The notes beneath the pieces were generated by a model. The model made no database searches, was not told where the DNA came from, and saw only the letters and a program-made list of their open reading frames with translations. The position numbers and the translations under genes were made by a program. 32,000 nt of DNA. Origin: Rhodospirillaceae bacterium (GTDB lineage: Bacteria > Pseudomonadota > Alphaproteobacteria > Rhodospirillales > Rhodospirillaceae). Positions within the stretch are counted from its first letter, which is position 1; the number at the start of each line of letters is the position of its first letter. Shown here one piece after another: positions 4,759 to 32,000 of this stretch. The stretch lies in the NCBI GenBank assembly GCA_041686745.1, contig JAWLDH010000010.1, positions 94,239-126,238 of the forward strand. Reading direction: 5' to 3'.

Positions 4759-5217
4759 CTATGGGAAGGATTGCTTCAGCGCCTCCGCCACTTCAGCCAG
4801 CCTCCTTACATTGGCCACTTCGCATTCCCAGATCACCAGAACGCGCCATCCGGCGGCCTCCAGTTCGGCGCCGACCTGCGTGTCCCGGGCCTTGTTGCGT
4901 GCCAACTTGGCCGCCCACCAGTCGGTGCGGGTCTTGGGAAGGCGGAACTTCACGCAGCCTTCATGGCAATGCCAGAAGCACCCGTGGACAAAGAGGACGG
5001 TGCGCCGTCCGGCGAATACCAGATCGGGCCGCCCCGGCAGCCGCTTGTGGTGAAGGCGGTAGCGGAGTCCTGCCGCCCAAAGGGCGCGGCGGACGGCTAG
5101 CTCCGGCTTGGTGTCCTTGCCCCGGATGCGGGACATGACCTCGGAGCGGGTCAGCGGTGGAGCCTTGGCCTTCCGGCGCTTCCGCTTTGCGCCCAGATTC
5201 AGGGGTGCAGGGCACAT
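4759..5217 (-). CDS. vsr: very short patch repair endonuclease (T:G mismatch)
   Basis: TRSEVMSRIRGKDTKPE...LPGRPDLVF...VLFVHGCFWHCH...PKTRTDWWAAKLARNKARD...GWRVLVIWECE is colinear with E. coli Vsr (TRSKNMRAI...LPGRPDFVV...IFTHGCFWHHH...PATRTEFWLEKIGKNVERD...GWRVLIVWECA). It overlaps the upstream gene by 19 nt. Confidence 0.9.
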   Translation of the reverse strand: MCPAPLNLGAKRKRRKAKAPPLTRSEVMSRIRGKDTKPELAVRRALWAAGLRYRLHHKRLPGRPDLVFAGRRTVLFVHGCFWHCHEGCVKFRLPKTRTDWWAAKLARNKARDTQVGAELEAAGWRVLVIWECEVANVRRLAEVAEALKQSFP

Positions 5218-16820: not shown

Positions 16821-16904
16821 TTCCCGTTTGACGGTGCTCGAACCGTCTTCGCGCTACCTTGACGATCCGGGCGATGGCCCAAGGTCGTTCAAAAGGAGGG
16901 TGGC

Positions 16905-17786
16905 ATGATCGGGTTCGTCAAGACATGGTGGAGCGGCGTGGAGGCCAAGCGCCATCAACACGATGCCGAAAAGCGTGAAGCAATTCTGGAGGTCCAGGTG
17001 GCAGAGGCCCGCCGGGATCTCGGGTTTTTCCAGATTGACGCCGACGTTCCCCCGGAAATCAAGGACAGGGTGGCCGACCTCTTCCCGGTGACGGCGGACA
17101 CCCTGCCGCGGGTCCGGGCCTTCCTGAACGATCCCGCGATGCGCGCCCTGCGCGGTGGCATCGAGGAGCTGCGCGATATAGAAGTTTTCGTGCGCTCCCT
17201 CGGCGGCGACGGGCAGGTGTCGTTCACCCTGCGGGATTTCGCCGCCCATTTCGGGTTCGGCCCGCAGCGCGAGGCGAGCAAGCTCCTGCACTCGCCCGAC
17301 CTTCTGGGACAGGTTGGCTACGGCACTCTGGTCAAGGGAGCAACCGGCGCGATGATCGTCGGCGCGGCGATGGTGGGCACCGTCAAGCAGTCCATGCACA
17401 ACGGCTACATCACCGCCAGCGTCGGCGGCATGGGCTTCAGCCGCCATTCCTCGGCAATGAGCGTGCCGGAGCGTCAGGCGATGGCGCTCCTGTATGTCTT
17501 GCACAAGCGGGGAAAGGTTCCCGAACGCGACTACAAGGGGCTTTTCTTTGCCATGGTCTTCGCCAATGGCCACTGCGACGACAGCATCGTCGGCGACGGC
17601 CTGGGCGGCCGCAGCATCGGCGACAAGGACCTGATTGCCCAGCGCATCGGCCGCCACTTGGTGGGCAGCCGCATCGCCCCCCTGGAAAAGGCGCTGGACG
17701 TCATCATGGCCCGGCGGACTCTGCTGGCGCCGTGTGACCTGGAGACCGTTGACCGCCAACTGGCGCCGCTCAGTCGCGTGGGGTGA
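16905..17786 (+). CDS. hypothetical protein with a Gly-rich hydrophobic segment (293 aa)
   Basis: Strong RBS AAAAGGAGGG 4 nt before ATG 16905. Its composition is natural compared with the antisense ORF 16854-17759. The segment TLVKGATGAMIVGAAMVGTV resembles a glycine zipper or TM helix. Confidence 0.6.
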   Translation: MIGFVKTWWSGVEAKRHQHDAEKREAILEVQVAEARRDLGFFQIDADVPPEIKDRVADLFPVTADTLPRVRAFLNDPAMRALRGGIEELRDIEVFVRSLGGDGQVSFTLRDFAAHFGFGPQREASKLLHSPDLLGQVGYGTLVKGATGAMIVGAAMVGTVKQSMHNGYITASVGGMGFSRHSSAMSVPERQAMALLYVLHKRGKVPERDYKGLFFAMVFANGHCDDSIVGDGLGGRSIGDKDLIAQRIGRHLVGSRIAPLEKALDVIMARRTLLAPCDLETVDRQLAPLSRVG

Positions 17787-17814: not shown

Positions 17815-18099
17815 TTACAGAATATAGGTGCCACTCAGCTCGGGGAATGGCGCGCCGCCAATGGCCAGGCAGTGCATACGGCCGCGGGCGCCAACGGCAT
17901 AGACCCGCAGCATGTCTTCCGGGTCCAGTTCTCCTTGGATGCGCGCGGCCAGGGTGCGGGCGGCATGCGGGGTCATGAATACCTCGAACACGCTTTTCTG
18001 CACCCGTACGGCCTCGTCTTCCAGTAGGGCGGCGACCCGCGCCCGCACGCGGGGGCGGGCGATGTCGTAGCAGAAAACCATCAAGTATTCGGTGGCCAT
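17815..18099 (-). CDS. cas2: CRISPR-associated endoribonuclease Cas2
   Basis: 94 aa. The pattern YLMVFCYDI...RVRARVAALLEDEAVRVQKSVFEV...LRVY is the Cas2 ferredoxin-fold pattern. The GAGGGA RBS overlaps the RT-cas1 stop. Confidence 0.9.
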   Translation of the reverse strand: MATEYLMVFCYDIARPRVRARVAALLEDEAVRVQKSVFEVFMTPHAARTLAARIQGELDPEDMLRVYAVGARGRMHCLAIGGAPFPELSGTYIL

Positions 18100-18105
18100 G
18101 ATCCC

Positions 18106-20076
18106 TCAGTAGTCCATGTGATAGGGAACATAGGGCGCGTCGCCCAGGACGGCCTCGGCATAGAGGGCCACCTGGTCGGCGACCAGGTTGCGCCAGGTGC
18201 CCTTGGCGCCGGTCGCCGGGCTGACCACCGGCCGCTCCAGCCAGCCCTCATAGCCGGAAATGATCCGCTTCCGGGCCTCCGGGTCGAACTGGACCGCGCC
18301 GTCGCGATCGCGGGCGGCGAACATCTCCATCGACAGGCGGCGGCCGTTGAACAGGGTCACGGTCAGGGCCTCGGCAATGGGGGTGCGGAACTCTTCCATC
18401 AGGTCATTGACGCAGGCCGGTGCGCCGTCGCGTGGGGTGTGCAGGGCGCCGAAGCCCGGATGCAGCCCCTCGCGGTCGACGGCGGCGGACAGGTCGCGCT
18501 CCAGCAGCGTGGCCACGAACGACAGCACGGCGTTGACCGGATCCGTCGGAGGGCGCCGTTGCCTACCCGGCAAGGACGCGCCATGGCGCAGCAGGCGCGA
18601 CAGGGCCGGCCAGTACAGGGCGGCGGCCTCGCCTTCCACTCCCATCACGCGCGGCACCGAGTCCATGAGGGGCAGCTTGCGGCGCAGGCGGCCGATGCGC
18701 CGCGCCACATCGGCCACCGTGTCGTCGTCGGCGGTCCGGTTGAGGCGGCGCAGCAGGGAACGCTGGTTGTGTATGCGGGCCTCCACGATGGTGGCGGCCA
18801 GGGCGGTGCGCCGCGCGTCATCGAGGCAGATGCGCGCCTGCGCCAGATGCAATCCGACCCTCTCCGCCGACGGGCGGGCGAGGCTGGCCAGGGTGGCGCC
18901 GTGGCCGGTGACGATATCGACGCGAATGCCTTCGGCCGCCAAGTGGGCCAGGGCGTCCTCGTCGATGGCGCAGCCGGGACCCAGTTCCACCCGGTCGAGG
19001 CGGCCCGGCGCGATGGCCAGCAGTTCACGGTCGCCATCCCGCACCGTCAGCGCCATGTTGCGCACCGCTAGGCGCCGGCCCGGTTGGACTAGGTAGAGAG
19101 AGCGTAGTACCGGCCGGCGGGGGCTGTCGCGCTCGGCCAGGGGGGTGATGATTTCGGCCTCCTCCAGTGTTTCCGGCTGGCGGGGTGGTGGCACCGGCAC
19201 CGGCGCCGGGCCTTGGGCCGGGGCTGGATCTTCGTCCCCCGTCGAATCCACCACCAGCGAGCGCACGAACAGCCGTCCCAGGAAGCGGAACCCCTCGTCG
19301 AAGGACACCAGCCGTGTCTTGTTCGGGTTCAGGCGCAACCCCAGCCGTTCCAACTGCCCGGCCAGGCGCGCCAGGGCACCGGCTGCGCGGGCCTCGGACC
19401 GGCACAGGACAATGAAGTCGTCGGCAAAGCGCACCAAGTGGGCTCCGGTGCCCTCCATCGCCTCGTCGACCTCATCGAGGAACAGGTTGGCGAGCAGCGG
19501 CGACAGCGGGGACCCTTGCGGAAACCCCCGGCCTTCGGGCGCGGCACCGGAAAGCCACTGATTGACCAGGGCGATGAGGGGCGCCTCGCCAACACTGCGC
19601 CCCAGGCGTGCCAACAGCTTGTCATGCGGCACCGAATCGAAGAACCGTTCAATGTCGCCATCGACCACCCAGGTATAGCCCTGGCGGCGCAGGTGGCTGA
19701 TGCGTTCCACCGCCTGCCCGACGGACCGGCCGGGCCGGTAGGCATAGCTCGCCGGTTCCATCTCCGCATCCAGCAGGGGACCCAATACCGCCACGGCGGC
19801 GGCCTGCGTGATGCGGTCGGCGATACAGGGGATCAGCAGGGTCCGCGTGCCGCCCGACCGCTTGGGAATGTCCACCCGGCGCAGCGGGCCAGGATGGTAG
19901 CGGCGCGCCCGCAGCGCCTGACCCAGGCGGGCCAGCCGTTCGGGAAGGTGGGCGGAGAACTGCCCGATGGTCACGCCATCCCCTCCTGGCCCCCCTTGAT
20001 TGCGGGCCACCCGCAGCCATCCGGCATGTAGCCCGTCCCAGGATGTAATGGCATCAAACAGTGGTGTATCGCTCAC
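18106..20076 (-). CDS. cas1: reverse transcriptase-Cas1 fusion protein
   Basis: The N-terminal half is a group II intron-like RT: NQGGPGGDGVTIGQF, RRVDIPKRSGGTRTLLIPCIADRITQAA, and the active-site block VRFADDFIVLC (YxDD-type). The C-terminal half is Cas1-like: LYWPAL...NAVLSFVATLLERDL...GLHPGFGALHTPRDGAPACVNDLMEEFR. GTG start at 20076. No Cas6 domain is fused. Confidence 0.95.
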   Translation of the reverse strand: MSDTPLFDAITSWDGLHAGWLRVARNQGGPGGDGVTIGQFSAHLPERLARLGQALRARRYHPGPLRRVDIPKRSGGTRTLLIPCIADRITQAAAVAVLGPLLDAEMEPASYAYRPGRSVGQAVERISHLRRQGYTWVVDGDIERFFDSVPHDKLLARLGRSVGEAPLIALVNQWLSGAAPEGRGFPQGSPLSPLLANLFLDEVDEAMEGTGAHLVRFADDFIVLCRSEARAAGALARLAGQLERLGLRLNPNKTRLVSFDEGFRFLGRLFVRSLVVDSTGDEDPAPAQGPAPVPVPPPRQPETLEEAEIITPLAERDSPRRPVLRSLYLVQPGRRLAVRNMALTVRDGDRELLAIAPGRLDRVELGPGCAIDEDALAHLAAEGIRVDIVTGHGATLASLARPSAERVGLHLAQARICLDDARRTALAATIVEARIHNQRSLLRRLNRTADDDTVADVARRIGRLRRKLPLMDSVPRVMGVEGEAAALYWPALSRLLRHGASLPGRQRRPPTDPVNAVLSFVATLLERDLSAAVDREGLHPGFGALHTPRDGAPACVNDLMEEFRTPIAEALTVTLFNGRRLSMEMFAARDRDGAVQFDPEARKRIISGYEGWLERPVVSPATGAKGTWRNLVADQVALYAEAVLGDAPYVPYHMDY

Positions 20077-20240
20077 GCAGTGCCCCGTGGAAAAATGGTT
20101 AAAGGGTTATAATAAATATGATATTCTTCGTTATGAGGGCGCCATTAGCCTGGAAATGGAGCGGATGACGTGACTTTCAAAGACCTCAGTGGATTTATGA
20201 CCGAAAGAATGATCTTGCGCAACTCCTGCCAAACCCCTAA
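20077..20240 (+). promoter_or_regulatory. leader of CRISPR array 1, shared with the divergent RT-cas1 promoter region
   Basis: AT-rich relative to its surroundings, with TATAAT at 20108-20113. The degenerate repeat lies at the far (right) end of the array, which places the leader here. Confidence 0.45.
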
Positions 20241-20690
20241 GTTTGAGCAGCATCCGCTTCGGCGGGTGCATCAAAACACGCAGTCCCCACGGTTGAACCC
20301 TTTGCTGGGTTTGAGCAGCATCCGCTTCGGCGGGTGCATCAAAACGGTGATGGCCAGATAGATGAGAATCGGCATCAGTTTGAGCAGCATCCGCTTCGGC
20401 GGGTGCATCAAAACAACGGGTGCCCGCTGTTCACTTCCGGGTTGTGTTTGAGCAGCATCCGCTTCGGCGGGTGCATCAAAACGGTTGTGGTCGAACAGGT
20501 GGCCCGAGCTCTCGTGTTTGAGCAGCATCCGCTTCGGCGGGTGCATCAAAACACAATCGCCACCTCAATGAGGTGCGCCCCCCGGGTTTGAGCAGCATCC
20601 GCTTCGGCGGGTGCATCAAAACATTCCATGGTAGTTCAGGGCGTCCTTGAACAGTTTGAGCAGCATCCGCTTCGGCGGGTGCTGCTCTGT
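20241..20690 (+). CRISPR. CRISPR array 1: 7 repeats of 37 nt, 6 spacers of 31-33 nt
   Basis: Repeat GTTTGAGCAGCATCCGCTTCGGCGGGTGCATCAAAAC starts at 20241, 20309, 20378, 20446, 20516, 20586 and 20654. The last copy matches only the first 29 nt and is the degenerate trailer repeat. Spacer lengths are 31, 32, 31, 33, 33 and 31 nt. An internal 8-bp stem (GCAUCCGC/GCGGGUGC) is closed by a UUCG loop. The 3-prime 8 nt AUCAAAAC would form the crRNA tag. Confidence 0.95.
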
Positions 20691-20727
20691 TATGGGGTTG
20701 CGATAGGATTGGGGCGTGCCTCAGTAT

Positions 20728-20766
20728 GAAGATGCCGGGGCGGTTGCTCCGGCATCTTCATTTTTT
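20728..20766 (+). terminator. Rho-independent terminator after array 1
   Basis: GAAGATGCCGG (20728-20738), a 10-nt loop, CCGGCATCTTC (20749-20759), then ATTTTTT (20760-20766). It sits between the array trailer and the convergent stop at 20784, so it may serve both transcripts. Confidence 0.65.
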
Positions 20767-20783
20767 GTGGGCGGTGAAAGAGG

Positions 20784-22367
20784 TTACGTGTCCGACAGAA
20801 TTGCGATGCGGCAGTCGTATGCCTTTAGTTTTCCGTCGTTATTGATGTAAGTGATGGCGTAGGCGTGTTGCAAAGCATGGATTGCAGCAGCCACGCTAAA
20901 GGATTTTTGACCCGCCGTGATGTCCACGGCAATCTGAGTGTCCTTGACCTTCGCCGCGCGGAGCGCAGACAGCGCGGTGCGCATTTTTGTTTCTACCGCT
21001 TTTACATTCTCATAGTCCACGGCATCGACATCAATGATCGAGGCATCATCTTTAGGTGGGCCGACGGGTGGAACGGTAGCGATATCGACAATGCAGTTCT
21101 TGATGAGTCCTTGAACCTGGATCGTTCGCTCGCCGTCACCTATTAAAGGTCGTGTCAGGTGGAGGAGTTCAACGAATTTATCCATTTGCTTTGATGACTT
21201 GGTCGATGGAATCAGTATTATATTTTTTGTGGGTAAAATACGTATTGCGCGGAGTGTTTGGAACCAGTTCATTGATCTCAGGGCGACGGCACCAAGAAAT
21301 GACCTTGCTGATTTGCTTTTTTCAATAATTTTCAAGAAAATTATTTCATTTTTGTCGGTGGTATGGGATTTATCCGTAACCTTACCTTCCGTATATTTTT
21401 TAGCGAAGCTGTAAAATTTAAATTCTGTGTCGTTATCAAATAATTCTCTTACTAGGTCAAGTTCGTCTGTGTGCGCCATTTTTGGCTTATCAGTTTCAAA
21501 AAATATATCATTCAATTGTATGTATTCTTTTGTAATATTAAGTATATTATTCTTATTTGTTGAATCGACGTACTCTTTTATGAATGTCATAATCTTATTC
21601 CAATGTTCATCCTGCGTATTATTGTTGCGCAGGGAGATCTCAGGGTCCGCCGGTAGAATGTTGACCCGCGATAGCCCGCTGATGAGGTGGGTTCGCTCTG
21701 TCTTATCGGCCTCATCCACCTCATCCACTCGGACGTTGAAGAGCCCGCTCTTGAGTTTGTCCAGCAAGACCATACAGGCGAGAAGGCACACGCTGAGAAG
21801 GCCCGCCCAGACCCAGGATGGCCACGGCGGGTTTGCGAACTGCCACGCAATCGGGCTCCCCGGTTTCGTCGGTGCGGCTGAATTTTCTGATGCCGTCGTG
21901 GTGCCGCCTTTTGTGGGAGTGACGTCTTGCTCAGTCTCCGCCACCAAGCCTTCAGCCTTCCCATCGGTCACGGCGGCGTGAGCAGCAGCCTCGGTACCTA
22001 CAGCGACTGTTTTGGCATCGGGTTGCGTGGCAGGTGGTGACGCGGGAGGGGGCGATGCAGGAACCTCCTTCCGGATCAGGTCAACGGCGTCGGAGAAGTC
22101 ATCTGCAATGGTTTTGAAGGTCTCCGGCACCAGTCCAACGACTGCTGCGGCTATAAAGACGAAAAGCGGAAGTTTCATCTGTCGCCAAGACAAGGCGATA
22201 ATGACGGCGCTGGACGTTAGAGCCAGGGTGGCGAGAGCGTAGTGCCACGATGGCGAGAAAAAATGGGCAATCAGTGTAGCGGAAGCTACGAAGACGGCCC
22301 ATGGTCGCCAGTCTATAATCCACTTTTTTAATGCATATTTCTGCTTTTTCTGAGTTTTATTGCTCAT
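20784..22367 (-). CDS. four-TM membrane protein with C-terminal CARF-like domain (putative cyclic-oligoadenylate-responsive effector)
   Basis: I prefer the start at ATG 22367 (MSNKTQKKQK), which has a GGGGGAA RBS 1 nt after the csx16 stop. Hydrophobic helices are RPWAVFVASATLIAHFF, WHYALATLALTSSAVIIALSW, LPLFVFIAAAVVGLV and, after a ~100-aa Pro/Ala/Thr-rich stretch, WPSWVWAGLLSVCLLACMVLL. The C-terminal ~300 aa start with THLISGLS and contain IAVDITAGQKSFSVAAAIHA, which matches the CARF D-x-T-x-G-x-K hallmark. Confidence 0.65.
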   Translation of the reverse strand: MSNKTQKKQKYALKKWIIDWRPWAVFVASATLIAHFFSPSWHYALATLALTSSAVIIALSWRQMKLPLFVFIAAAVVGLVPETFKTIADDFSDAVDLIRKEVPASPPPASPPATQPDAKTVAVGTEAAAHAAVTDGKAEGLVAETEQDVTPTKGGTTTASENSAAPTKPGSPIAWQFANPPWPSWVWAGLLSVCLLACMVLLDKLKSGLFNVRVDEVDEADKTERTHLISGLSRVNILPADPEISLRNNNTQDEHWNKIMTFIKEYVDSTNKNNILNITKEYIQLNDIFFETDKPKMAHTDELDLVRELFDNDTEFKFYSFAKKYTEGKVTDKSHTTDKNEIIFLKIIEKSKSARSFLGAVALRSMNWFQTLRAIRILPTKNIILIPSTKSSKQMDKFVELLHLTRPLIGDGERTIQVQGLIKNCIVDIATVPPVGPPKDDASIIDVDAVDYENVKAVETKMRTALSALRAAKVKDTQIAVDITAGQKSFSVAAAIHALQHAYAITYINNDGKLKAYDCRIAILSDT

Positions 22368-22368
22368 G

Positions 22369-22692
22369 TTATTCCCCCAGTGTGTGACTGTCAGTGCCTG
22401 ATGCGGTCCAGGTGCGGACTTCGAATCGCTCAAGATGCGCCCCAAGTTGCACCAAGTCCGCTTCTGAAAGCGTCGTTCCACGCAGGTTCGGCGGGGTTTC
22501 AATCCTCAGATGCCAGTATTCGGCGCCCCGAGAACAGACCTCCGCCGCCAGGTGAACCGGCAGGGTCCCGATGACTTGGTCTCCTGGCCTCACCATGTTC
22601 ACATCAAGGTGTTCAACTATTTGATCTGGCTTGAGTTTCTTTATCATCCAGCTGATGGCGGCATCGTGGCGCGACACGAGAATGCAAGCCAT
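22369..22692 (-). CDS. csx16: CRISPR-associated protein Csx16 (VVA1548 family)
   Basis: ILVSRHDAAISWM...EHLDV..VRPGDQVIGTLPVHLAAEVCSRGAEYWHL....P..LRGTTLSEADL...GAHLERFEV follows the Csx16 pattern as I recall it (FVSRHPGAIEW...GD.V.GTLP..LAA.V...GA.Y..L...P...RG.ELT). An alternative upstream ATG lies at 22716. Confidence 0.7.
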   Translation of the reverse strand: MACILVSRHDAAISWMIKKLKPDQIVEHLDVNMVRPGDQVIGTLPVHLAAEVCSRGAEYWHLRIETPPNLRGTTLSEADLVQLGAHLERFEVRTWTASGTDSHTLGE

Positions 22693-22847
22693 GGTGTCAT
22701 TTCCGCTCACTGGCATCCAATTTTTAGCTGATAATTGAGCCGTCGGGTGGGCAAAAAATCAAGACAAAATAGAAGCGAATTTTTGATTGCTCTTCTGGAG
22801 GTTGAATCGCCATAATTTTCGCGGAGGCGGCAGGCGGGGGAAGTCGG
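22693..22847. promoter_or_regulatory. divergent control region between csx16/membrane-CARF and the cmr operon
   Basis: A 155-bp AT-richer intergenic region. On the plus strand, a possible TTGCTC (22787-22792), 18 nt, CATAAT (22811-16). I have not verified a minus-strand promoter. Confidence 0.3.
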
Positions 22848-24251
22848 TTGCGTAAAATCGAGGCGACGTTTGAGGTGCTTACGCCCCTCTTTACCGGGCG
22901 GGATCCGCATGCGGACAGCGGTGAGTTGAGGCCAGCCGCGGTGAAGGGGGTGCTCCGCTTCTGGTGGCGTGCTCTGGCATGGGGGATCTACGAGCCGTTG
23001 GCGCGCCGACGAGGCAATACTCCTCTTGCGCTCCTTCATGAGGCCGAAGCATGGCTTTTCGGGTCCGCCTCAAACGGCGTGTCACGAGTCCGCATCCGGG
23101 TGAACCTCGATGACCATGATCCAAGCGATCCACCGTTTCCGGATGGGGCGAAGCCCTATCCTTACCTCGGCTATGGACTCAACGCGGACAAGGGCACCAC
23201 GACGGACGTGCCCAAGCCGGCACGGGTCGCTTGTGCCGTAAGGGTTTTCGCAGTTCACTTGTTTTATGATGATCGGTTGCCACCGGAAAATCACCTATTT
23301 CGCGAGATAGCATTGGAAGCCCTGGAGTTGCTGCCGCAGGCCGTGAGGGCTCTGGGTCTTCTCGGTGGCGTGGGGGCGAGAACCCGACGGGGCTTCGGAA
23401 GTCTCTGCCTGACGTCGATGCGGATCAGTGAAGGGCGTCGCCAAAGCGGGAGCGATACTCCGGACGTCGAGGTCCAGACCCTGGATGAGTACGAGGCATC
23501 GTTGAAGGAGTTGCTGCGGCGTGCCTTCAAAGGCGAGGTGCCTGCGCCGCCGTATTCGGCGTTCTCGCCATCAGCCAGCGTGACCATTTGCATCGCCCAC
23601 GAAAGCGCTTCCATGGTGCTTCATGAGGCTGGCTTCGTGATGCAGCACTATCGGAGTTATGGCGGGCGTGGGCCGGGAAGTACCCCCCCGCATCGTTTGA
23701 TGATTCCCGAAGCGTTGCAGCACGAAAAAACCCGCCTGATCCCCGTTGGCGAAGGTGCAGGCGATGAAACCTGGGAAAGAAGTTTCGTCGATGACCATGA
23801 TGATTTCTACTTGGGAAAAAACACAAAGGTTCCTCGTCGTACCGCGTTCGGTTTGCCGCATAATTACGGAGCAAAGAAGTATGTGGCGGCTCGGATAGGT
23901 GGGGAATTGAAAGCCCGACGGGCCTCTCCTCTTCATTTTCATGTCCACAAACTGAAAACAAAGACAGATAAGCCGTACTACGTATTGGTGCTTACCGTGC
24001 TCATGCCGGCAGAAGACAGTTATCTGCCTCCTGGGGCAGAGTTGGTCTGGAGAAGCACTACCGCGAAAGCGCCCAATGGATGGGAAAAACTCCCTGGAGC
24101 TGTTGATCTTGGGGTCATTGAGCAGTTCGTCGCCCGCTTCAACCATGTCACTGAGGACGGATATTCCATCGCACGACTGGACGCAGGGATACCCATGCCG
24201 CAGGTCGAACGTCAGCTCGAACAGAGCCTCCCGCGCAAGGTGAACCCATGA
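22848..24251 (+). CDS. cmr1: type III-B RAMP protein Cmr1
   Basis: TTG start with a GGGGGAAG RBS. The N-terminus IEATFEVLTPLFTGRDPHADSGELRPAAVKGVLRFWWRAL is the canonical Cmr1 signature (LTPLF.GG...AELRP.SIKG.LRFWWRA). Confidence 0.85.
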   Translation: MRKIEATFEVLTPLFTGRDPHADSGELRPAAVKGVLRFWWRALAWGIYEPLARRRGNTPLALLHEAEAWLFGSASNGVSRVRIRVNLDDHDPSDPPFPDGAKPYPYLGYGLNADKGTTTDVPKPARVACAVRVFAVHLFYDDRLPPENHLFREIALEALELLPQAVRALGLLGGVGARTRRGFGSLCLTSMRISEGRRQSGSDTPDVEVQTLDEYEASLKELLRRAFKGEVPAPPYSAFSPSASVTICIAHESASMVLHEAGFVMQHYRSYGGRGPGSTPPHRLMIPEALQHEKTRLIPVGEGAGDETWERSFVDDHDDFYLGKNTKVPRRTAFGLPHNYGAKKYVAARIGGELKARRASPLHFHVHKLKTKTDKPYYVLVLTVLMPAEDSYLPPGAELVWRSTTAKAPNGWEKLPGAVDLGVIEQFVARFNHVTEDGYSIARLDAGIPMPQVERQLEQSLPRKVNP

Positions 24252-26533
24252 TGCGTCGCCTGCTCTTGAGTCTTAAGGCGTTCTTCCAAAGGTTCCGCCG
24301 GACGCAGAAGGTGCTTGCGCATGCTGTGTCAGCGCCGCATCAGGCGGCCGCGCCCATCGGGGTTTCCGAGAAATGGCAGCGATTTGAAATGTCGATTGGC
24401 CCCGTGCAAGCGTGGGTCGGGCAGGCTCGTCGCACGAGAGATCTTTGGGCAGGGTCCTATGTTCTGGCGTGGCTTAGTGCTCGGGCGGCAGCCGCGGCAC
24501 TGGTCCAAGATCGGGAGAGAAGCGAAAGCCTTTTGGAATGTAGTCCGCCCGGTGTGTCATTGAAGAGCATTGAGCAGAAGTCTACGGATGCCATTCTTTG
24601 GGGTGAAATTCAGCATCAACTTGGGAAAGAAAGGGGGCCGCTGCCCCTGGTGGCATCAATGCCAAATCATTTCCGGGTGTTGGTTCCGCCGGGAAGCAGC
24701 CTGGATGTGGAAAAGTGCGTCCAGGCAGCGTACAGCGGATGGTGGTCACTCTGTGATGCGGTCTATTTGTGTTTCGTGAAGCCTGTTGCGCAAACGCCGG
24801 AAGAACGTGCTCACTTGGACGCGCTATGGTATCGGCAGACGGGCAGTCTCCCAAACCTCAAGGCCAAGGACCGACGCCCGGTGTTTTGGGAAGTTCTTTG
24901 GACGGTTGATGAAGCGTCACGCCCTGGGGCGCTCTCTGATTCGGCCATGGATCGGCGCAAGATCTGGCGCGACCATGTGAATCCTGTGATGGCCGATGGA
25001 GAGGCGTCCTGTTCGCTGATGCCAAACTGGGCTGCGTTGTACCTTCCAAATCATAATCGCAATTCCAAGGATTTTTGGGAACGTTTGCAGGAAATGCTCT
25101 CGCTGGCTGTCTACGATAAACTGTCCAAGCCTACGCTTGATCTTCGACCCGGTGAGCGATTGTGTGCCATAGCTTTGGTGAAGCGCCTGTTTCCTGTCCT
25201 TCCGGCCATTGACCTTCAAAAGGTCTTTGGCTGTTTGCCCGAAGGGGTGAAGGTAAGCGGTAGTGCGGACGCGGACCGGCAATGTCGTGCCATTCTGGCG
25301 AATTGGCCCTCTACAGCCTACTTGGCTGCGGCACCCTGGATTAAATATGCCTGGGAGTTGGATAAAGGCGCGTGTATCACATTCCAAGAGGCACATTCTC
25401 CTAGTAAAAATATTAGCAAGCTAAAGTCAGAAGTCCCTTCGTTGCAGAAGGTCTTCGCGAGCGCGGAGATCAAAGGCAAGGGTTGGTCCAGCTTTGCGGG
25501 GCTGGACGGCGGTCTTTTTCAGCCCAGAAGTCTGGAGCGTGCATCCGCGGAAGAGGGCGCCAAGGAGGCGTTTCGCGTCCTTAGTGGCGCTATTGAGGGC
25601 AAGGGCGGCGTGAAGCGTCCAAGTACCTACTATGCCCTTCTGAAGATGGATGTAGACCAGGCTGGCAAAGCTCTCGGTACAGAAGGGCTGCGGGAATTTC
25701 TTCCGACCGTCTTGACGGAATTTTCCCGTGCGGCACCGGCCATTGTCGCACGTAACATGGGCGTGACGATTTATGCCGGCGGTGATGATCTACTGGCAAT
25801 AATGCCTGTTGACACCTCAATCACGGCGGCCGTTGAGCTTGAAGCGGTTTGGCGCACATTGTTCCATAGGTGCAGGGAGGAAAAAAAGCAGCTAGGACCA
25901 CAGAATCTTTGCACTGTTTCCGCAGGGTTGGTGTTTGCCGACTATCAAGTTCCCCTGTCGCGGGTCAGGGCTGAAGCTGACCGGGTGCTTGACGAGTTGG
26001 CAAAAGAATCCAACAACCGCAACAGCATCGCGATCAGCCTGCTGCGACGCGGGGGGCAAGGGGGGCAATGGGTGTCCGCTTGGCGCTCTGTTCCAGCGCG
26101 GTTGCCGGGTGTGCCGCATGTTCAGGAACCTCTCCTCCCAGTCATGACGTTGCTCGACCTCGCTCGATTATTTCAAAGCGATCCCGCGGCGACCAAACGC
26201 TTCTTTTACAAAGTGCGGGAGCGCCTTGGAATGTTGCTTCATGGCGAGCGGTGCTTGGTTGATCAAAAAACGCTGCATGCGCTTTTTGTGGCGGAGTTTA
26301 TTGAAGATAACCTTGATGGGGATCGAATTCAGGAAGTCGCCCGTCAAATGGCGGGCCTACTTTTTATTGCTCAACCGAACGCCCAGCCCCTGGCCGAAAG
26401 AAATTTTATTCCCGGCGATGCGCAGCAAGGGTCTGACAGGGTCAATATTGAAGTTTTTTGGATCGTTCGTTTTCTTGCAATGAACTTACTTCCTGTTTCC
26501 GGCGCTGTGAAAGCCGAAATGGAGAACGTATAA
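24248..26533 (+). CDS. cas10: Cas10/Cmr2, GGDD cyclase motif intact, no HD domain
   Basis: SIGPVQAWVGQARRTRDLWAGSYVLAWL (conserved Cmr2 block) begins at about residue 49, so there is no room for an N-terminal HD domain. The palm-domain motif is VTIYAGGDDLLAIMP. ATGA overlap with the cmr1 stop. 761 aa. Confidence 0.9.
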   Translation: MMRRLLLSLKAFFQRFRRTQKVLAHAVSAPHQAAAPIGVSEKWQRFEMSIGPVQAWVGQARRTRDLWAGSYVLAWLSARAAAAALVQDRERSESLLECSPPGVSLKSIEQKSTDAILWGEIQHQLGKERGPLPLVASMPNHFRVLVPPGSSLDVEKCVQAAYSGWWSLCDAVYLCFVKPVAQTPEERAHLDALWYRQTGSLPNLKAKDRRPVFWEVLWTVDEASRPGALSDSAMDRRKIWRDHVNPVMADGEASCSLMPNWAALYLPNHNRNSKDFWERLQEMLSLAVYDKLSKPTLDLRPGERLCAIALVKRLFPVLPAIDLQKVFGCLPEGVKVSGSADADRQCRAILANWPSTAYLAAAPWIKYAWELDKGACITFQEAHSPSKNISKLKSEVPSLQKVFASAEIKGKGWSSFAGLDGGLFQPRSLERASAEEGAKEAFRVLSGAIEGKGGVKRPSTYYALLKMDVDQAGKALGTEGLREFLPTVLTEFSRAAPAIVARNMGVTIYAGGDDLLAIMPVDTSITAAVELEAVWRTLFHRCREEKKQLGPQNLCTVSAGLVFADYQVPLSRVRAEADRVLDELAKESNNRNSIAISLLRRGGQGGQWVSAWRSVPARLPGVPHVQEPLLPVMTLLDLARLFQSDPAATKRFFYKVRERLGMLLHGERCLVDQKTLHALFVAEFIEDNLDGDRIQEVARQMAGLLFIAQPNAQPLAERNFIPGDAQQGSDRVNIEVFWIVRFLAMNLLPVSGAVKAEMENV

Positions 26534-26534
26534 C

Positions 26535-27833
26535 GTGCGACATCAGACTTTTCTTATTTTGCCTTGGGATACTGGGTCTTTCCGGGACGCCCGTCCGTTC
26601 TATCAGGATGACCAAGGAATGGCTGAAGCCTTCAGTCAGTTTCCTCCTTCACAGCGGACGGCTGTCGGTTCAATCCGAGCCGCGCTGGCCCGCGCGGCTG
26701 GATGGTCCGGGCGCGGCGGGTGGGGGGATTCCGTTAAGGCGCTTTTAGGTGATGGTGAAAATTTGGCCCCATTGAGCTTCTCAGCTCTCACCCTCGTCAG
26801 GAAGTCAGTATCGGAGGATGCGGGTGGCCGATGGGAGGCAATGGTGCCCATGCCTTTCAGCCTCGGCTATTCCGGTCACTCCTTGTCAGTTTTCGATAGG
26901 GCGATCTCCCAGCGGAGGTGTAGCGAAACGAAGCCCCAGTTTATTGAATGGCGCCCGATGGACCAAAGCGTCTCATGCGACAACCGAAATCCGATGGCCC
27001 CGTGGTCGCCACACAGTAAAAAGGATCTCGGGGAGCGGGTAAGCGCGTTGGAGGGGTATGTTGTTAGTGCCCACGCGTTGCGAGCGCGTTTTGCACCGAA
27101 CGGAGGAGAGCTCAATAAGGCGCTGGACTACAGCGATGTCGAACGGCTGGAAGCATCAGCCGCGCAGTTGGATGAAGGCAGGCCAGTGGAGTTCTCAGAG
27201 GAACAGGGATTTGACCAAGAGGTTTGGGGTGGCAGCACGCGCTTGCAAATCCTTAAGGGAATGGGAGCCTGTGCCGTTCGGGAAACTTCCATAGGCATAG
27301 GGAGGGATTCTTTGACGCGCAGGGTTGTGGATAAGCGGCTATACCAAAACTCGATGATTCGCCTTTTGCCAGATCATGGCTATGTCATTTCCGTAAGTAG
27401 CTCCAAGGACGATATGCCCGCGCTACAGGGGCCAGTGACGGTGCCTTTTGGCGGGGAAGGAAGGGCGGCGACCCTTGTCCGTCTGGAGGACGATGTTACG
27501 GATTTGAGGTGGAGCTTTAGGTGGCGGGAACGTGAAGGCAAGATCGCCTTATGTTTGATGAGCCCGGCGGCCTTTGATGAGGCTCCCCGCATCGGGGCCC
27601 CCTTATGGGAGAAGGGGCCGGCGGTGATCGGCGTGGCTGGGGGCCGCACTGCTCCGGTCGGGGGGTGGTCGGGGGAATCAGGAAAGGCCGGCTCTGTGGG
27701 TGGGGCCGCCTACTATCCTGCGGGCACGGTATGGTTTGTTGAGGGGCCTGTGGACGATGTACCTGGATCATTGGGGCGGAAAAAGGATTGGCCCTGGGGT
27801 TTTGGAAAATTCGTCGCCTGGCCTCTCGCCTGA
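26535..27833 (+). CDS. cmr3: type III-B RAMP protein Cmr3
   Basis: GTG start 1 nt after the cas10 stop. The N-terminus FLILPWDTGSFRDARPF....AEAFSQFPPSQRTAVGSIRAAL matches the Cmr3 pattern (P.D.L.FRDGRPF......FPP.P.T..GA.R). Confidence 0.85.
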   Translation: MRHQTFLILPWDTGSFRDARPFYQDDQGMAEAFSQFPPSQRTAVGSIRAALARAAGWSGRGGWGDSVKALLGDGENLAPLSFSALTLVRKSVSEDAGGRWEAMVPMPFSLGYSGHSLSVFDRAISQRRCSETKPQFIEWRPMDQSVSCDNRNPMAPWSPHSKKDLGERVSALEGYVVSAHALRARFAPNGGELNKALDYSDVERLEASAAQLDEGRPVEFSEEQGFDQEVWGGSTRLQILKGMGACAVRETSIGIGRDSLTRRVVDKRLYQNSMIRLLPDHGYVISVSSSKDDMPALQGPVTVPFGGEGRAATLVRLEDDVTDLRWSFRWREREGKIALCLMSPAAFDEAPRIGAPLWEKGPAVIGVAGGRTAPVGGWSGESGKAGSVGGAAYYPAGTVWFVEGPVDDVPGSLGRKKDWPWGFGKFVAWPLA

Positions 27834-27869
27834 AGCATGGCCGAGGGCGGGCACGGGGGGAGAGAAGAA

Positions 27870-28871
27870 ATGTTTATCGTGGGCATGATTGCAGAGACGT
27901 TTATTCATCCGGGAAGCGGCCAATCCCTTGGTGCCATTGATCTGCCAGTGGCAAGGGAACGGGCCAGCGGCCTGCCATACATCGCAGGGTCTTCGATGAA
28001 GGGGGCTTTTCGCCAAGTGCACGACGACAGGGCACAGAAGGAGACGGATAAAGAAAAGCGTGAGGGCCTTAAAAATAAAATCTATAAATACTTCGGCAAG
28101 GAACTGGGGAGTGAAGGGGCAGGCGCAGTCCTTTTTTCAGACGCCCGACTTTTGATTCTTCCGGTGCGGTCCTTGACCACACGGTTTGTTCTGTTGACCT
28201 GTCCAATGCTGTTGCGCCGCCTTGATCGTGACTTGGAGAGAATAGGCGACGCCGGCCTGGGGCCTGCGACTCTGTCAGTGGACGCTGAGGTCATGCTTGT
28301 TCACCCGGAAAGTCCACTGATTGAAACAGAGCACTACCTTGAAGACCGATCCTTCAAAGCCAAGCGGCTCAATGCTGAGACGATACAGGGCGTTGATTAC
28401 CTGCTTGGCAAGGTTGTCGGTGATGCGGCCAAGGAGATGCGGAAATTTGTCGGGATCGTATCGGATGACGATTTTCTCTGGTTCTGTTCGTTCGGGCTTC
28501 ATGTCCAGGCCAGAAATAATCTCGATAAGAGAAAGGTCAGTAAAAACCTGTGGTACGAAGAACTTCTGTCTCCGGATACCGTATTCTATACAATGCTCGG
28601 TGATCGCTTGGCTGATGGGGACTCATGTGCTGAGGACGTGTTAGCGGAATTGAAGTATCTTCAGGTTGGCGGCAACGAAACATTGGGCCAGGGGTGGTTC
28701 AGGTTATGTAAATCGTCTTCGGTGTCCAAGAAAACGCAGGTAGTCTCCACTGCTCGTGCGGTCACGGAACAGCAGCCCAATAAAGGAGGCGTTCCGGAGA
28801 GCGCCAGCCCAACGGTGGCGGCGAAGCCGAAAGTGGGCAGCGGTAAGAAGGGAGGGCGCCGTGGCCGTTGA
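27870..28871 (+). CDS. cmr4: type III-B backbone RAMP Cmr4 (target-RNA cleaving subunit)
   Basis: I prefer ATG 27870, which has a GGGGGAGAGAAG RBS, over 27837. TFIHPGSGQSLGAIDLPVARERASGLPYIAGSSMKGAFR includes the catalytic-loop Asp (IDLPV). The G-rich C-terminal motif is VGGNETLGQGWF. A basic low-complexity tail follows. Confidence 0.9.
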   Translation: MFIVGMIAETFIHPGSGQSLGAIDLPVARERASGLPYIAGSSMKGAFRQVHDDRAQKETDKEKREGLKNKIYKYFGKELGSEGAGAVLFSDARLLILPVRSLTTRFVLLTCPMLLRRLDRDLERIGDAGLGPATLSVDAEVMLVHPESPLIETEHYLEDRSFKAKRLNAETIQGVDYLLGKVVGDAAKEMRKFVGIVSDDDFLWFCSFGLHVQARNNLDKRKVSKNLWYEELLSPDTVFYTMLGDRLADGDSCAEDVLAELKYLQVGGNETLGQGWFRLCKSSSVSKKTQVVSTARAVTEQQPNKGGVPESASPTVAAKPKVGSGKKGGRRGR

Positions 28872-29319
28872 TAAACGCGTAGCACATGCCTTGAAATCGG
28901 TTGAGGCGTTTCTGGCCGGACTGGAGCCAAATCCGGAACGCATTGGGGATGCGGGAGAAACATCTGGAAGGCGAATCGCGGCCGCCCGAAAGTTCGATGC
29001 GTATGTAAAGGCTCTTCCAGCTATGATTGTCTGCAATGGCTTGGGGCAGGTCAGCGCGGTGCTTGCCAAGGATGCCGCTGCGTCAGACGAAGTCAAGGTG
29101 CTCCATGACTGTCTGAGGGATTGGCTGGATGGTATCTTCGGCGTGCAGGATAACTGCCTTGTTAGATGCGTTCAGGCGGTCAATCAGAAGGATTATGCCA
29201 TTGCGACCCACGAGGCTTTGCAGTGGGCTGGGTGGGTCAAGAAGTTCTCGGGCGCATTGGTTGCTCCCTTGATTCCGAAAGAGGAAGGAGGGCGTGGTGA
29301 CGCGGCCGATTTGGGATGA
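28861..29319 (+). CDS. cmr5: type III-B small subunit Cmr5
   Basis: GTG 28861 has an AAGGGAGGG RBS and overlaps the cmr4 end by 11 nt. YVKALPAMIVCNGLGQVSAVL matches the Cmr5 pattern (LP.LI..NGLGQ.LAFL). The protein is all-helical and 152 aa. Confidence 0.8.
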   Translation: MAVDKRVAHALKSVEAFLAGLEPNPERIGDAGETSGRRIAAARKFDAYVKALPAMIVCNGLGQVSAVLAKDAAASDEVKVLHDCLRDWLDGIFGVQDNCLVRCVQAVNQKDYAIATHEALQWAGWVKKFSGALVAPLIPKEEGGRGDAADLG

Positions 29320-30091
29320 GGCGCCGGGGCTTCCGAAGCAGGGAGGAGGCAACATTGGCCTGAGGTTCACCAAGCACTTTGACTTCTGGGAGGGCCGGGA
29401 GTGGAGGGCCCAAAAAGGGGCGGTGGCGGCGTGGGTCGAAAGTCTGCCGAATGATGGCGGCAGAGAAGCCCCGCTTTTGGGGCGCCGCAGGGATTTGATC
29501 GCCGCGCTGGAGGGGCTGACCTGGGCCATGCGGACGGTCAGCCGCCTCATCATCGGCGTTGGAAACCCCCATCCTGTGGAAAATGGGCTGACGTGGCATC
29601 CGACTTTGGGAGTCCCCTTTCTTCCCGCGAGCGGTCTTAAGGGGTTGGCGAAGGCCTACGCTGCGGAGGACGTCATTCCCGGCACGGAAGACGAGGTGAT
29701 CTTCAAAAGAATCTTTGGCGGTGACGATGACCAGTCAGGCGGGACAGGCGGGCACGGCAGCGTTCTGTTTTTCGACGCGCTTCCCCGCCTGACCGGCAAG
29801 GGAATGTTGGATTGGGACATCATGACGCCGCATTACAATCCCTGGTACATGGCGTCTGCCCCTTCCGAAACGCCTCCGGGTGACTGGTACGACCCGATCC
29901 CGATTCAGTTCCTGACGGTCGCCCAGGAATGCACATTTGACTTCGCAATAGCTCCGGACCCGTCGGCGGTTGATGCGGACCAGGCAAGAAAAGATATGGG
30001 CCTCGCAAAGGCGTGGCTTGAAAACGCAGCGTCCGATCTTGGTGTCGGGGCCAAGACCGCCGTTGGATATGGTCAAATGGACAGGGTCTAA
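29294..30091 (+). CDS. cmr6: type III-B RAMP protein Cmr6
   Basis: GTG start with a GAGGAAGGAGG RBS. NIGLRFTKHF, SRLIIGVGNPHPVENGLTWHPTLGVPFLPASGLKGLAKA and the C-terminal GVGAKTAVGYGQM are typical Cmr6 blocks. Confidence 0.85.
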   Translation: MVTRPIWDEAPGLPKQGGGNIGLRFTKHFDFWEGREWRAQKGAVAAWVESLPNDGGREAPLLGRRRDLIAALEGLTWAMRTVSRLIIGVGNPHPVENGLTWHPTLGVPFLPASGLKGLAKAYAAEDVIPGTEDEVIFKRIFGGDDDQSGGTGGHGSVLFFDALPRLTGKGMLDWDIMTPHYNPWYMASAPSETPPGDWYDPIPIQFLTVAQECTFDFAIAPDPSAVDADQARKDMGLAKAWLENAASDLGVGAKTAVGYGQMDRV

Positions 30092-30098
30092 GTCGTTG

Positions 30099-30120
30099 GA
30101 AAATGCCCCTTCCGTGGGGC
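30099..30120 (-). terminator. small hairpin plus T-tract (on the minus strand) between cmr6 and the array 2 trailer
   Basis: GCCCC (30105-30109), loop ttccgt, GGGGC (30116-30120). On the minus strand the hairpin is followed by ATTTTCC. The 5-bp stem is weak. Confidence 0.3.
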
Positions 30121-30172
30121 TCTTGAGGCCCGATCAAGGGCCGTGCTGGCCGCTCCGCTGGGCCGCTGGCAT

Positions 30173-31127
30173 GGTGCTATGCACCGGCCGAAGCCGGTGC
30201 TGGTTAAACGTTCTCGTCAGCAGAGACGTTGCCCTCAAGCAGGGATAGTTTTGATGCACCGGCCAAAGCCGATGCTGATTAAACGCCGCGGCCTTTGGCT
30301 GCGGTGCGATTGCCGCTTTGTTGTTTTGATGCACCGGCCGAAGCCGATGCTGATTAAACCACCTGAACAACTTCGACATCGACAACAGCAACGTTTTGAT
30401 GCACCGGCCGAAGCCGATGCTGATTAAACTGGCCGACGAACTCCAAGCCAGCGAGGCCATCCGTTTTGATGCACCGGCCGAAGCCGATGCTGATTAAACA
30501 TTTCCGAAGTCACCCCGACTCCGGCGCCGGTGGTAAGTTTTGATGCACCGGCCGAAGCCGATGCTGATTAAACAGAAGTTCGCCCAAATGAAGGCGATCG
30601 GCTAAGTTTTGATGCACCGGCCGAAGCCGATGCTGATTAAACACAGCGAGTCGATCTGCCGCGCAATCGGCGACAAGGCGTTTTGATGCACCGGCCGAAG
30701 CCGATGCTGATTAAACCCACCACCGGTACGACGGTGCGGCGGATTATGTTTTGATGCACCGGCCGAAGCCGATGCTGATTAAACCAAAATGCCGATGGAC
30801 CATCCGGTGGAGAGGGTTTTGATGCACCGGCCGAAGCCGATGCTGATTAAACGAAGGGCATCTCGAGCCGGATCTCGTTCGTGGGTTTTGATGCACCGGC
30901 CGAAGCCGATGCTGATTAAACGCTCTGCAGGACATCAAAAGCGAAGGAGGGAAGTTTTGATGCACCGGCCGAAGCCGATGCTGATTAAACATAACTTCTG
31001 GATCAAACCAGATTATCGTTGGTTTTGATGCACCGGCCGAAGCCGATGCTGATTAAACCGACAAGTACAAGGCCTAAACTAAACACCCCCGTTTTGATGC
31101 ACCGGCCGAAGCCGATGCTGATTAAAC
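30173..31127 (-). CRISPR. CRISPR array 2: 14 repeats of 37 nt, 13 spacers of 31-38 nt, transcribed from the minus strand
   Basis: The plus-strand repeat GTTTTGATGCACCGGCCGAAGCCGATGCTGATTAAAC starts at 30248 (1 mismatch), 30323, 30393, 30463, 30537, 30606, 30680, 30748, 30816, 30885, 30954, 31022 and 31091. A degenerate copy GGTGCTATGCACCGGCCGAAGCCGGTGCTGGTTAAAC lies at 30173-30209. Spacer lengths from left to right are 38, 38, 33, 33, 37, 32, 37, 31, 31, 32, 32, 31 and 32 nt. The reverse complement GTTTAATCAGCATCGGCTTCGGCCGGTGCATCAAAAC is 33/37 identical to the array 1 repeat. The degenerate repeat at the left end indicates a leader on the right. Confidence 0.95.
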
Positions 31128-31267
31128 CTACCTCTCTGGCACGTCCTGATCAAGGCGTAAAATGTCAGCATAATTCCACGAAGATGGCGGTGAATCTACA
31201 AACGTGTTTGAAATCCAGGTCATAGAGGGCATTGTTGTCATGAAAACTTCAATCAGGACAGGGTGTT
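31128..31267 (-). promoter_or_regulatory. leader of CRISPR array 2
   Basis: A relatively AT-rich 140 bp between the newest-end repeat (31091-31127) and the Cas6-like ORF. The leader assignment follows from the repeat orientation and the position of the degenerate repeat. Confidence 0.4.
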
Positions 31268-32000
31268 GTGAATAATCCACTGGGTCTGTGGGAAGGTTTT
31301 CTGGGAGGGGAGAAGGTCTGTGTCCCTCTGGAGGCGATATCCCACTTGTGGCAGGCGGGATGCATCGATGTTGTTTGCCATCGGCCTGGGGTTTTCGAGG
31401 AAACTCCGGGTTTGTCGGACCGTGTGCGCGGGGCTTTCGGGCGCCAGCTCCATCCTGGGGGCGCCGGGCCGCGGCGGCACGACACGGATATCTTATGGAC
31501 TTTGCTTTTCGAGTCCATGCCGCTGCTGGATGGCGGCCGCGCACCCCATCGGCCTGCGGTCCTGTCAGCGGTTTATGATGGTGCCAACATCCGGGTCCGG
31601 CTGATGCTGTTGGGAGATGTGCGGCGGTATCTGAACGCGGCAGCCCATGCCTTGCGGGCGGGATTGGAACACGGCATCGCAGTGCGGCCGAATGGCATCG
31701 GTCGGCAGCCGCTTCCGGTGGTGGCGATGACAACCCGATGGATCGAGGGACTGGTCTTGCCGCCCGGGCCCGACGCAGAGGTCCATCTGCACTTCCTGAC
31801 GCCCTTGTCCATTCGGGCCAGGGGCCGGTCGCGGCGCTCCGCGTCGGGCCTGTTGCCTGGATTGGTCCAGAAAGTGGCCGAGATACTTCCGATGATGGGG
31901 CTGACGCTGGACGAGGACAGCCGGCGAGCCGTGCTGCGCGCTGTTGAGCATGTGACGGTCGAAGATGGTGCCATGATCTTGACGCGGTGGAAGCGCCACT
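31268..32000 (+). CDS. cas6: putative Cas6-family (DUF2276-type) pre-crRNA endoribonuclease, truncated by the window end
   Basis: My own translation of the frame that opens at 31244 finds GTG 31268 and no stop through 32000: MNNPLGLWEGFLGGEKVCVPLEAISHLWQAGCIDVVCHRPGVFEETPGLSDRVRGAFGRQLH...LLFES...PAVLSAVYDGANIRVRLMLLGD...HLHFLTPLSIRARG. The ...LRGAFG..L, ...LFE and P.vl...g..l.f.L.LlG blocks resemble the DUF2276-type Cas6 as I recall it. It is not in the ORF track because it has no stop codon. It sits next to an array in a locus that otherwise lacks cas6. Confidence 0.45.
   Translation, partial: MNNPLGLWEGFLGGEKVCVPLEAISHLWQAGCIDVVCHRPGVFEETPGLSDRVRGAFGRQLHPGGAGPRRHDTDILWTLLFESMPLLDGGRAPHRPAVLSAVYDGANIRVRLMLLGDVRRYLNAAAHALRAGLEHGIAVRPNGIGRQPLPVVAMTTRWIEGLVLPPGPDAEVHLHFLTPLSIRARGRSRRSASGLLPGLVQKVAEILPMMGLTLDEDSRRAVLRAVEHVTVEDGAMILTRWKRH

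Follow-up and report, generated by a model that had tools for sequence, protein, structure and literature searches.

Two converging CRISPR arrays with a probable compensatory change in their repeat hairpin at a type III-B RT-Cas1 locus of a Rhodospirillaceae bacterium

A stretch of 32,000 nucleotides (nt) from the genome of a Rhodospirillaceae bacterium (assembly GCA_041686745.1, contig JAWLDH010000010.1, positions 94,239 to 126,238 of the forward strand; hereafter the window, with positions counted from its first letter) carries two CRISPR arrays, in opposite orientation, on either side of a set of effector genes. The repeats of both arrays fold into the same hairpin, the stem of which contains one base pair that is C:G in the first array and G:C in the second, and the evidence supports the hairpin as the selected feature, the support coming from the stability of the fold and from the register kept by repeats that lie beside distant relatives of the single Cas6 protein of this genome. 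We interpret the region as one horizontally acquired type III-B (Cmr) CRISPR-Cas system with a reverse transcriptase (RT)-Cas1 adaptation module, in which selection would act on the stem and both arrays would be used by one Cas6 and one Cmr complex, and we place the probability of this explanation as a whole at roughly 85%.

The two elements contain 7 and 14 copies, respectively, of a 37-nt repeat, and every one of their spacers is unique (Table 1). The exact repeats of array 1 start at 20241, 20309, 20378, 20446, 20516 and 20586, the last of them ending at 20622, and the seventh copy (20654-20690) is identical to them through repeat position 29 and divergent after it. The 12 exact repeats of array 2 lie between 30323 and 31127 on the minus strand; a further copy (30248-30284) carries a single mismatch, C20 to T, in the loop, and the terminal copy (30173-30209) is degenerate. 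No match to either repeat was obtained in 100 dinucleotide-preserving shuffles, and a scan of the genome found no CRISPR arrays other than these two. Read in the same sense, the consensus repeats are identical at 33 of 37 positions, the differences falling at positions 5, 7, 15 and 24, and they end in the same 8 nt, AUCAAAAC. This degree of identity, the shared 3' end and the degenerate copies starting at 20654 and 30173 had been pointed out in an earlier examination of the letters alone (here termed the sequence-only reading), and all of them were recovered in the present analysis. The spacers of array 2, from leader to trailer, measure 32, 31, 32, 32, 31, 31, 37, 32, 37, 33, 33, 38 and 38 nt, and their length thus increases toward the trailer (Spearman rho 0.77, p 0.002), those of array 1 being only 31-33 nt long. 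This trend may reflect a changed length ruler of the integrase or the replacement of an adaptation module.

Folding with RNAfold pairs positions 10-17 with positions 22-29 in both repeats, yielding the 8-base-pair (bp) stem and UUCG loop that the sequence-only reading had described, together with the swap at pair 15:24. The folds are stable (-17.4 kcal/mol for array 1 and -15.3 kcal/mol for array 2, with z about -4.9), and none of 200 shuffles was as stable. Intermediates carrying only one of the two changes at 15:24 fold at -11.2 and -13.1 kcal/mol, a loss of 4-6 kcal/mol with respect to the natural repeats. Across the 21 repeat copies no change breaks the stem, and 40 of 40 stem cells are paired: the in-stem changes consist of the 15:24 swap and of a U·G to C-G replacement in the terminal repeat of array 2, both of which keep the pairing, and the changes outside the stem affect the loop, the 5' flank or decayed tags. 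An outer helix (positions 2-6 with 31-35), which would cover the cleavage site and the tag, can form only in the repeat of array 1; the A at position 5 of the array 2 repeat breaks it, with no compensating change elsewhere. The inner stem alone looks constrained.

The presumed partner of this hairpin is the stand-alone cas6 gene next to array 2. Its open reading frame (ORF) starts at 31268, runs divergently from array 2 and encodes 319 amino acids (L001:982-1941), and it was the sole match in a search of the whole genome for the Cas6 family. An AlphaFold2 model of the protein (predicted local distance difference test 89.3, predicted template-modelling score 0.88) was compared with the PDB using Foldseek, and its top 14 matches were all Cas6 proteins (E 1.7e-11 to 3.5e-7), the best being Streptococcus thermophilus Cas6 (6fjw, E 1.7e-11), followed by Thermus thermophilus 4c9d and 4c8y (to 1e-8). 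The model thus confirms a predicted Cas6 fold, which, to judge from the Foldseek matches, would comprise two RRM/ferredoxin-like domains. The C-terminal glycine-rich loop conserved among homologues (G..G.G..GLGRY) is present as well. The Thermus enzymes cleave at the 3' base of the hairpin that they bind in the repeat, so that a tag of 8 nt remains. The T. thermophilus Cas6A and Cas6B and S. thermophilus Cas6 structures are the best structural matches to the predicted protein, but their identity to it is only 16-20%, and the stem in the Rhodospirillaceae repeat is longer (8 bp). A sequence comparison with the PDB gave a single match, a weak one (E 0.035), namely the Cas6 domain in the Cas6-RT-Cas1 fusion from Marinomonas.

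This Cas6 belongs to a rare lineage. A word-based search retrieved one protein that is 74% identical (P0003, encoded on a 5.9-kb Logan contig) and one that is 27% identical; an exhaustive HMMER search returned 836 homologues, among which P0003 alone exceeds 36% identity. Among 1.84 billion representative proteins there is a single cluster above 50% identity, that of P0003, and the next is at 36% or less. A search of metagenomes with a two-sequence Cas6 alignment found no related loci. We also examined 20 loci around distant Cas6 homologues (about 30% identity, same phylum) for arrays. They yielded 12 arrays, with repeats of 35-37 nt, mostly 37 nt, and in all 12 the repeat contains a short hairpin, which is separated from the 3' end by 8 nt and followed by a tag of the form AU..A.AC. 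The 4-bp stems of these arrays covary (CCCC/GGGG, CCCU/AGGG, CCGC/GCGG). In the 37-nt repeats of this set (L165-L183) the 4-bp hairpin ends at position 29, and the 8-nt tag is of the type AUUGAGAC or AUUGAAAC. The Rhodospirillaceae repeat has the same register as these arrays and a longer stem. The agreement in the position of the stem end, here and beside the distant homologues, lends indirect support to the predicted cleavage by Cas6 8 nt from the 3' end of the repeat.

The direction in which the arrays are read is well supported, with array 1 presumably transcribed on the plus strand and array 2 on the minus strand, both toward the effector genes. At stem pair 13:26 this strand has a U·G wobble where its complement has an A·C mismatch, so that the hairpin is strand-specific; read in the proposed sense, the stem stops exactly 8 nt short of the repeat end. 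Each array has an AT-rich leader at one end and a repeat degenerate at its 3' side at the other. When aligned without gaps and in register, the last 60 nt of the two leaders match at 29 positions; the background over all windows is 14.8 +/- 3.3, and a value this high occurs in only 3 of 63,880. The trailers of the arrays match at only 22 of 100 positions. The motifs GTGGAWTTATG, CTTG, TGCCA and TA stand at equal distances from the first repeat in both leaders, GTGGAWTTATG lying at 20190-20200 and at 31168-31178, roughly -51 to -41 when counted from the first repeat of each array. These common motifs may be a site for anchoring integration or for a host factor, or part of a promoter. Both terminal repeats retain the entire hairpin and lose just the 3' tag, as would be expected if the last repeat serves to release the 3' end of the last CRISPR RNA (crRNA), its own tag preceding no spacer. 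The repeat with the mutated loop adjoins the trailer end of array 2. Array 1 is followed by a putative intrinsic terminator, the fold of which (-40.6 kcal/mol, z -4.6) was not equalled in stability by any of 200 shuffles. The leaders had been placed by the sequence-only reading at the intervals given in Table 1, with the same strands for the arrays, and the low G+C content and in-register motifs, the wobble pair, the identical 8 nt after the stem, the terminal repeats and the array 1 terminator, which are independent features, all agree with it.

Several observations weigh against the interpretation proposed here. The covariation amounts to one event, for which the different tests give p values from 0.014 to 0.09: in a neutral simulation with 4 random substitutions, a double-sided change that still pairs arises with P = 0.031, or with P = 0.014 if a fully intact stem is also required, and in a column-shuffle control 47 of 500 shuffles match the observed covariation score. 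Neither leader yielded a consensus sigma-70 promoter on the proposed strand, and the GC-rich hairpins of the array 2 trailer fold with a z of only -1.2, which is weak evidence for a terminator. A blastn search of both arrays against phage and plasmid collections gave no match, and when the spacers were compared with the host genome by blastn-short, no match outside the arrays was longer than 23 of their 31-38 nt; since the spacers matched nothing, the strandedness of targets is unusable as a check on orientation. Finally, related repeats were sought with a pattern in which the 5' GTTT, CAGC and the last 10 nt were fixed and the stem and loop were left free. In the GTDB species genomes it matched 42 times, always as singletons and never in an array; in the JGI metagenomes it matched at 79 loci, again with no array, 78 of them having a single match and the remaining one two copies separated by 1.7 kb; and in IMG/VR it matched 3 times, all singletons. 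When up to 3 mismatches were allowed, a search of 41 host relatives matched the repeat in the host alone. Rfam likewise returned no match to a CRISPR-DR family, only two sub-threshold chance matches. As no related repeats were found in the genomes and metagenomes searched, the covariation cannot be extended within the repeat family. The sequence-only reading had taken the covariation to argue that the hairpin is the selected feature, presumably as the substrate of Cas6; that conclusion agrees with the folds and with the distant Cas6 relatives, whereas the single compensatory pair on which it was based is statistically thin.

This thinness lends some weight to an alternative that we nonetheless regard as unlikely: that the swap is a neutral coincidence or that only one array is in use, the arrays being independent acquisitions or relics, with Cas6 perhaps processing only the adjacent array 2 or RT-Cas1 feeding only array 1. 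The weak support from a single pair, as quantified above by the shuffles and the simulation, is compatible with it, and so is the precedent of Vibrio vulnificus YJ016, the arrays of which differ strongly in promoter activity and acquisition efficiency (PMC6821258). Moreover, each terminal repeat already bears the 15:24 version of its own array, so that the arrays have been separate lineages as far back as their content records. Set against this, both arrays have homogeneous repeats, intact and identical tags and conserved leader motifs, both carry recent-looking spacers of 31-33 nt at the leader end, and none of the 21 repeat copies has acquired a change that would break the stem.

We consider it quite unlikely that the palindrome is kept not as an RNA hairpin for Cas6 but for DNA-level needs of the RT-Cas1-Cas2 integrase, such as recognition or measuring of the repeat. 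Integrases do read features of the repeat, both leaders carry motifs suited to integration, and compensatory changes by themselves cannot separate an inverted repeat in DNA from a stem in RNA. The 13:26 pair, however, is T/G, which pairs only as RNA and on one strand, and makes no DNA palindrome; this argues that the stem is selected at the RNA level. The UUCG tetraloop and the exact spacing of 8 nt to the repeat end also fit Cas6 substrates, and the distant Cas6 relatives hold the register of the hairpin despite unrelated stem sequences. The two roles are in any case not mutually exclusive, and a DNA-level role with the integrase can coexist with that of the RNA hairpin.

It is very improbable that the arrays are transcribed on the opposite strands, outward from the cas genes, with crRNA tags coming from the other end of the repeat, for although the repeat ends are partly palindromic (GTTT...AAAC) and the missing sigma-70 consensus concerns the proposed strand, the antisense repeats have the A·C mismatch in the stem and fold 4-5 kcal/mol worse (-12.3 and -10.9 kcal/mol), their 3' flank is 9 nt and not 8, their last 8 nt differ at 2 positions between arrays, and transcription in that sense would put the degenerate repeats at the promoter end, with a strong terminator upstream, and turn the conserved AT-rich flanks into trailers.

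With selection on the stem and inward transcription as the preferred explanation, the locus would operate as follows. The two arrays would be transcribed toward each other from their AT-rich outer leaders, leader 1 sharing its intergenic region with RT-cas1/cas2 and leader 2 with cas6. Each repeat of the precursor crRNA would fold into the 8-bp UUCG hairpin, which the single genomic Cas6 would bind and cut at its 3' base, leaving AUCAAAAC as an 8-nt 5' tag common to both arrays. Because this tag is identical, crRNAs of both arrays could load the same Cmr complex; and because the genome has a single Cas6 and no other array, the two repeat variants, if both are in use, must depend on one Cas6 and one Cmr complex. 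The C:G/G:C difference at 15:24 would represent a compensatory double substitution that keeps the shape of the hairpin and not the identity of the pair, each array being fixed for its own version because the repeat next to the leader is the template for new ones. A further extension, which we consider quite unlikely, is that the arrays are specialised and not redundant, with the stem swap, the change at position 5 and the neighbouring genes tuning Cas6 processing or RT-Cas1 integration for each array. If so, the arrays could differ in crRNA output or in the sources of their spacers, and the drop in array 2 from old spacers of 37-38 nt to new ones of 31-33 nt could mark the point at which the adaptation module was replaced, and array 1 would have been founded after that.

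The assignment of the system to type III-B is based on cas10/cmr2 together with cmr1, cmr3, cmr4, cmr5 and cmr6, all of which are present, consecutive and on the plus strand, with Cmr1, Cmr2, Cmr4 and Cmr6 exceeding their NCBIfam cut-offs and Cmr3 and Cmr5 their Pfam cut-offs. The window reads, in order, cas2 and RT-cas1 (minus strand), leader 1 and array 1 (plus strand) with the terminator, the CARF-like gene and csx16 (minus strand), cmr1-6 (plus strand), array 2 and leader 2 (minus strand) and cas6 (plus strand). The effector and accessory genes (csx16, the CARF-like gene and cmr1-6) are therefore enclosed by the two inward-facing arrays, outside of which lie RT-cas1/cas2 (beside array 1) and cas6 (beside array 2). 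The RT-cas1 ORF, which is divergent from array 1, encodes 656 amino acids with RVT_1 and Cas_Cas1 domains in a single frame and no Cas6 domain, and cas2 is adjacent downstream; the module may capture spacers from RNA by means of its RT. The fusion is the single Cas1 found in a search of the whole genome.

Table 1. Features of the type III-B locus and its two CRISPR arrays, in window coordinates.
Feature	Position	Strand	Content or evidence
cas2	17815..18099	-	TIGR01573 41.5 bits (cut-off 24.5); PF09827 53.9 bits
RT-cas1 fusion	18106..20076	-	PF00078 RVT_1, residues 70-267, E 1.2e-36; PF01867 Cas1, residues 327-610, E 6.2e-69
Leader of array 1 (putative)	20077..20240	+	G+C 44% (window 62%); in-register motifs common with leader 2
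CRISPR array 1	20241..20690	+	6 perfect 37-nt repeats and a degenerate terminal repeat; 6 spacers of 31-33 nt
Putative intrinsic terminator following array 1	20726..20771	+	Terminator scan; 16-bp stem followed by a U-run
CARF-like accessory gene	20784..22367 (start provisional)	-	Weak TIGR02710 CARF match, E 6.6e-4, below cut-off
csx16	22369..22716	-	TIGR02620 87.4 bits (cut-off 46.35); PF09652 E 4.4e-26
cmr1	22848..24251	+	TIGR01894 42.7 bits (cut-off 28.65); RAMP match PF03787
cas10/cmr2	24248..26533	+	TIGR02577 105.4 bits (cut-off 79.4); matches to PF22335 and PF12469
cmr3	26535..27833	+	PF09700 118.9 bits
cmr4	27837..28871	+	TIGR02580 161.4 bits (cut-off 87)
cmr5	28756..29319	+	PF09701 62.5 bits, match from residue 76
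cmr6	29294..30091	+	TIGR01898 147.5 bits (cut-off 51.1)
Trailer of array 2	30098..30164	-	Between cmr6 and array 2; GC-rich hairpins, of which the last precedes AUUUUCC
CRISPR array 2	30173..31127	-	12 perfect repeats, 1 loop variant and 1 degenerate repeat; 13 spacers of 31-38 nt
Leader of array 2 (putative)	31128..31267	-	G+C 45%; in-register motifs common with leader 1
cas6, stand-alone	31268..32000, continuing past the window to about 32227	+	PF10040 29.2-31.4 bits (cut-off 25)

Some gene boundaries within the locus call for comment. The CARF-like gene is a candidate cyclic-oligoadenylate sensor, as suggested by its weak family match. The TTG annotated as the start of cmr1 is overlapped by a minus-strand ORF of 110 amino acids (22707-23039) that matches no family; either this ORF is spurious or cmr1 begins further downstream, and because of the overlap the promoter region between csx16 and cmr1 is poorly defined. 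The true start of cmr5 is probably later than the annotated one, its family match beginning well inside the frame. A minus-strand ORF of 301 amino acids downstream of cas2 (16854-17759) was considered as a Cas6 candidate and rejected, as it has no family match and its translation resembles an antisense shadow. The locus sits in an island of defence and mobile functions, the neighbours of which include a coupling-protein cassette. Further upstream (5199-12142, minus strand), genes for DUF4420 (PD-(D/E)XK-like), Z1-domain and HATPase_c_3 proteins and a C-5 cytosine methylase resemble a restriction or defence module.

Two characterized systems offer close points of comparison. The III-B operon of Marinomonas mediterranea MMB-1 comprises RT-Cas1, Cas2, six cmr genes and two arrays, and small-RNA sequencing has located the processing of its crRNAs 8 nt from the 3' end of the repeat (PMC5576922). 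The Rhodospirillaceae locus resembles it in uniting a six-gene cmr cassette, RT-Cas1 with Cas2 and two arrays in one horizontally mobile locus. In MMB-1, however, Cas6 is fused to RT-Cas1, whereas here cas6 is an independent gene at the other end of the locus from RT-cas1, the similarity between the two Cas6 sequences is marginal (the E of 0.035 cited above), and the arrays flank the effector and accessory genes, converge and have repeats that differ at 4 of 37 positions. The absence of a Cas6 domain is not unusual in itself, being a property of 76 of the 110 RT-Cas1 fusions catalogued (PMC5541045). In the III-D system of V. vulnificus YJ016 the RT-Cas1 has no Cas6 domain, cas6 is a gene of its own, csx16 genes are present, and the two arrays have identical repeats but are unequal in promoter and acquisition activity (PMC6821258). 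The present locus shares with it the RT-Cas1 without a Cas6 domain, the separate cas6, csx16 and the two arrays with similar leaders; it differs in being of the Cmr type (III-B), with one Cas2 and diverged repeats that carry a stem swap, while in YJ016 the arrays flank the adaptation module, the repeats are identical and Cas2 is represented by two proteins.

Kunin et al. (2007) described G:U pairs and compensatory changes within the stems of CRISPR repeats and saw in them evidence for an RNA intermediate (PMC1896005). Like those, the repeats analyzed here form a stable stem-loop with a G:U pair and relaxed conservation of the loop, and they differ by one candidate compensatory exchange; unlike that study, which compared repeats across genomes, the comparison is made here between two arrays of one locus, and with no match to an Rfam CRISPR-DR family. 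RNA-level selection on the hairpins of CRISPR repeats and RT-Cas1 type III loci with two arrays are both established, and for that reason the locus raises no new question. What is particular to it is the convergence of the arrays around the effectors, the divergent pairing of the leaders with processing and adaptation genes, and the divergence of the repeats.

The analysis provides the annotation of the locus with strands, leaders, a tag and a Cas6 partner for a rare lineage of Cas6 and repeat associated with an RT-Cas1 III-B system. Beyond this, the natural C:G/G:C pair constitutes a ready pair of substrates, and it could show that Cas6 reads the shape of the upper stem and not its sequence.

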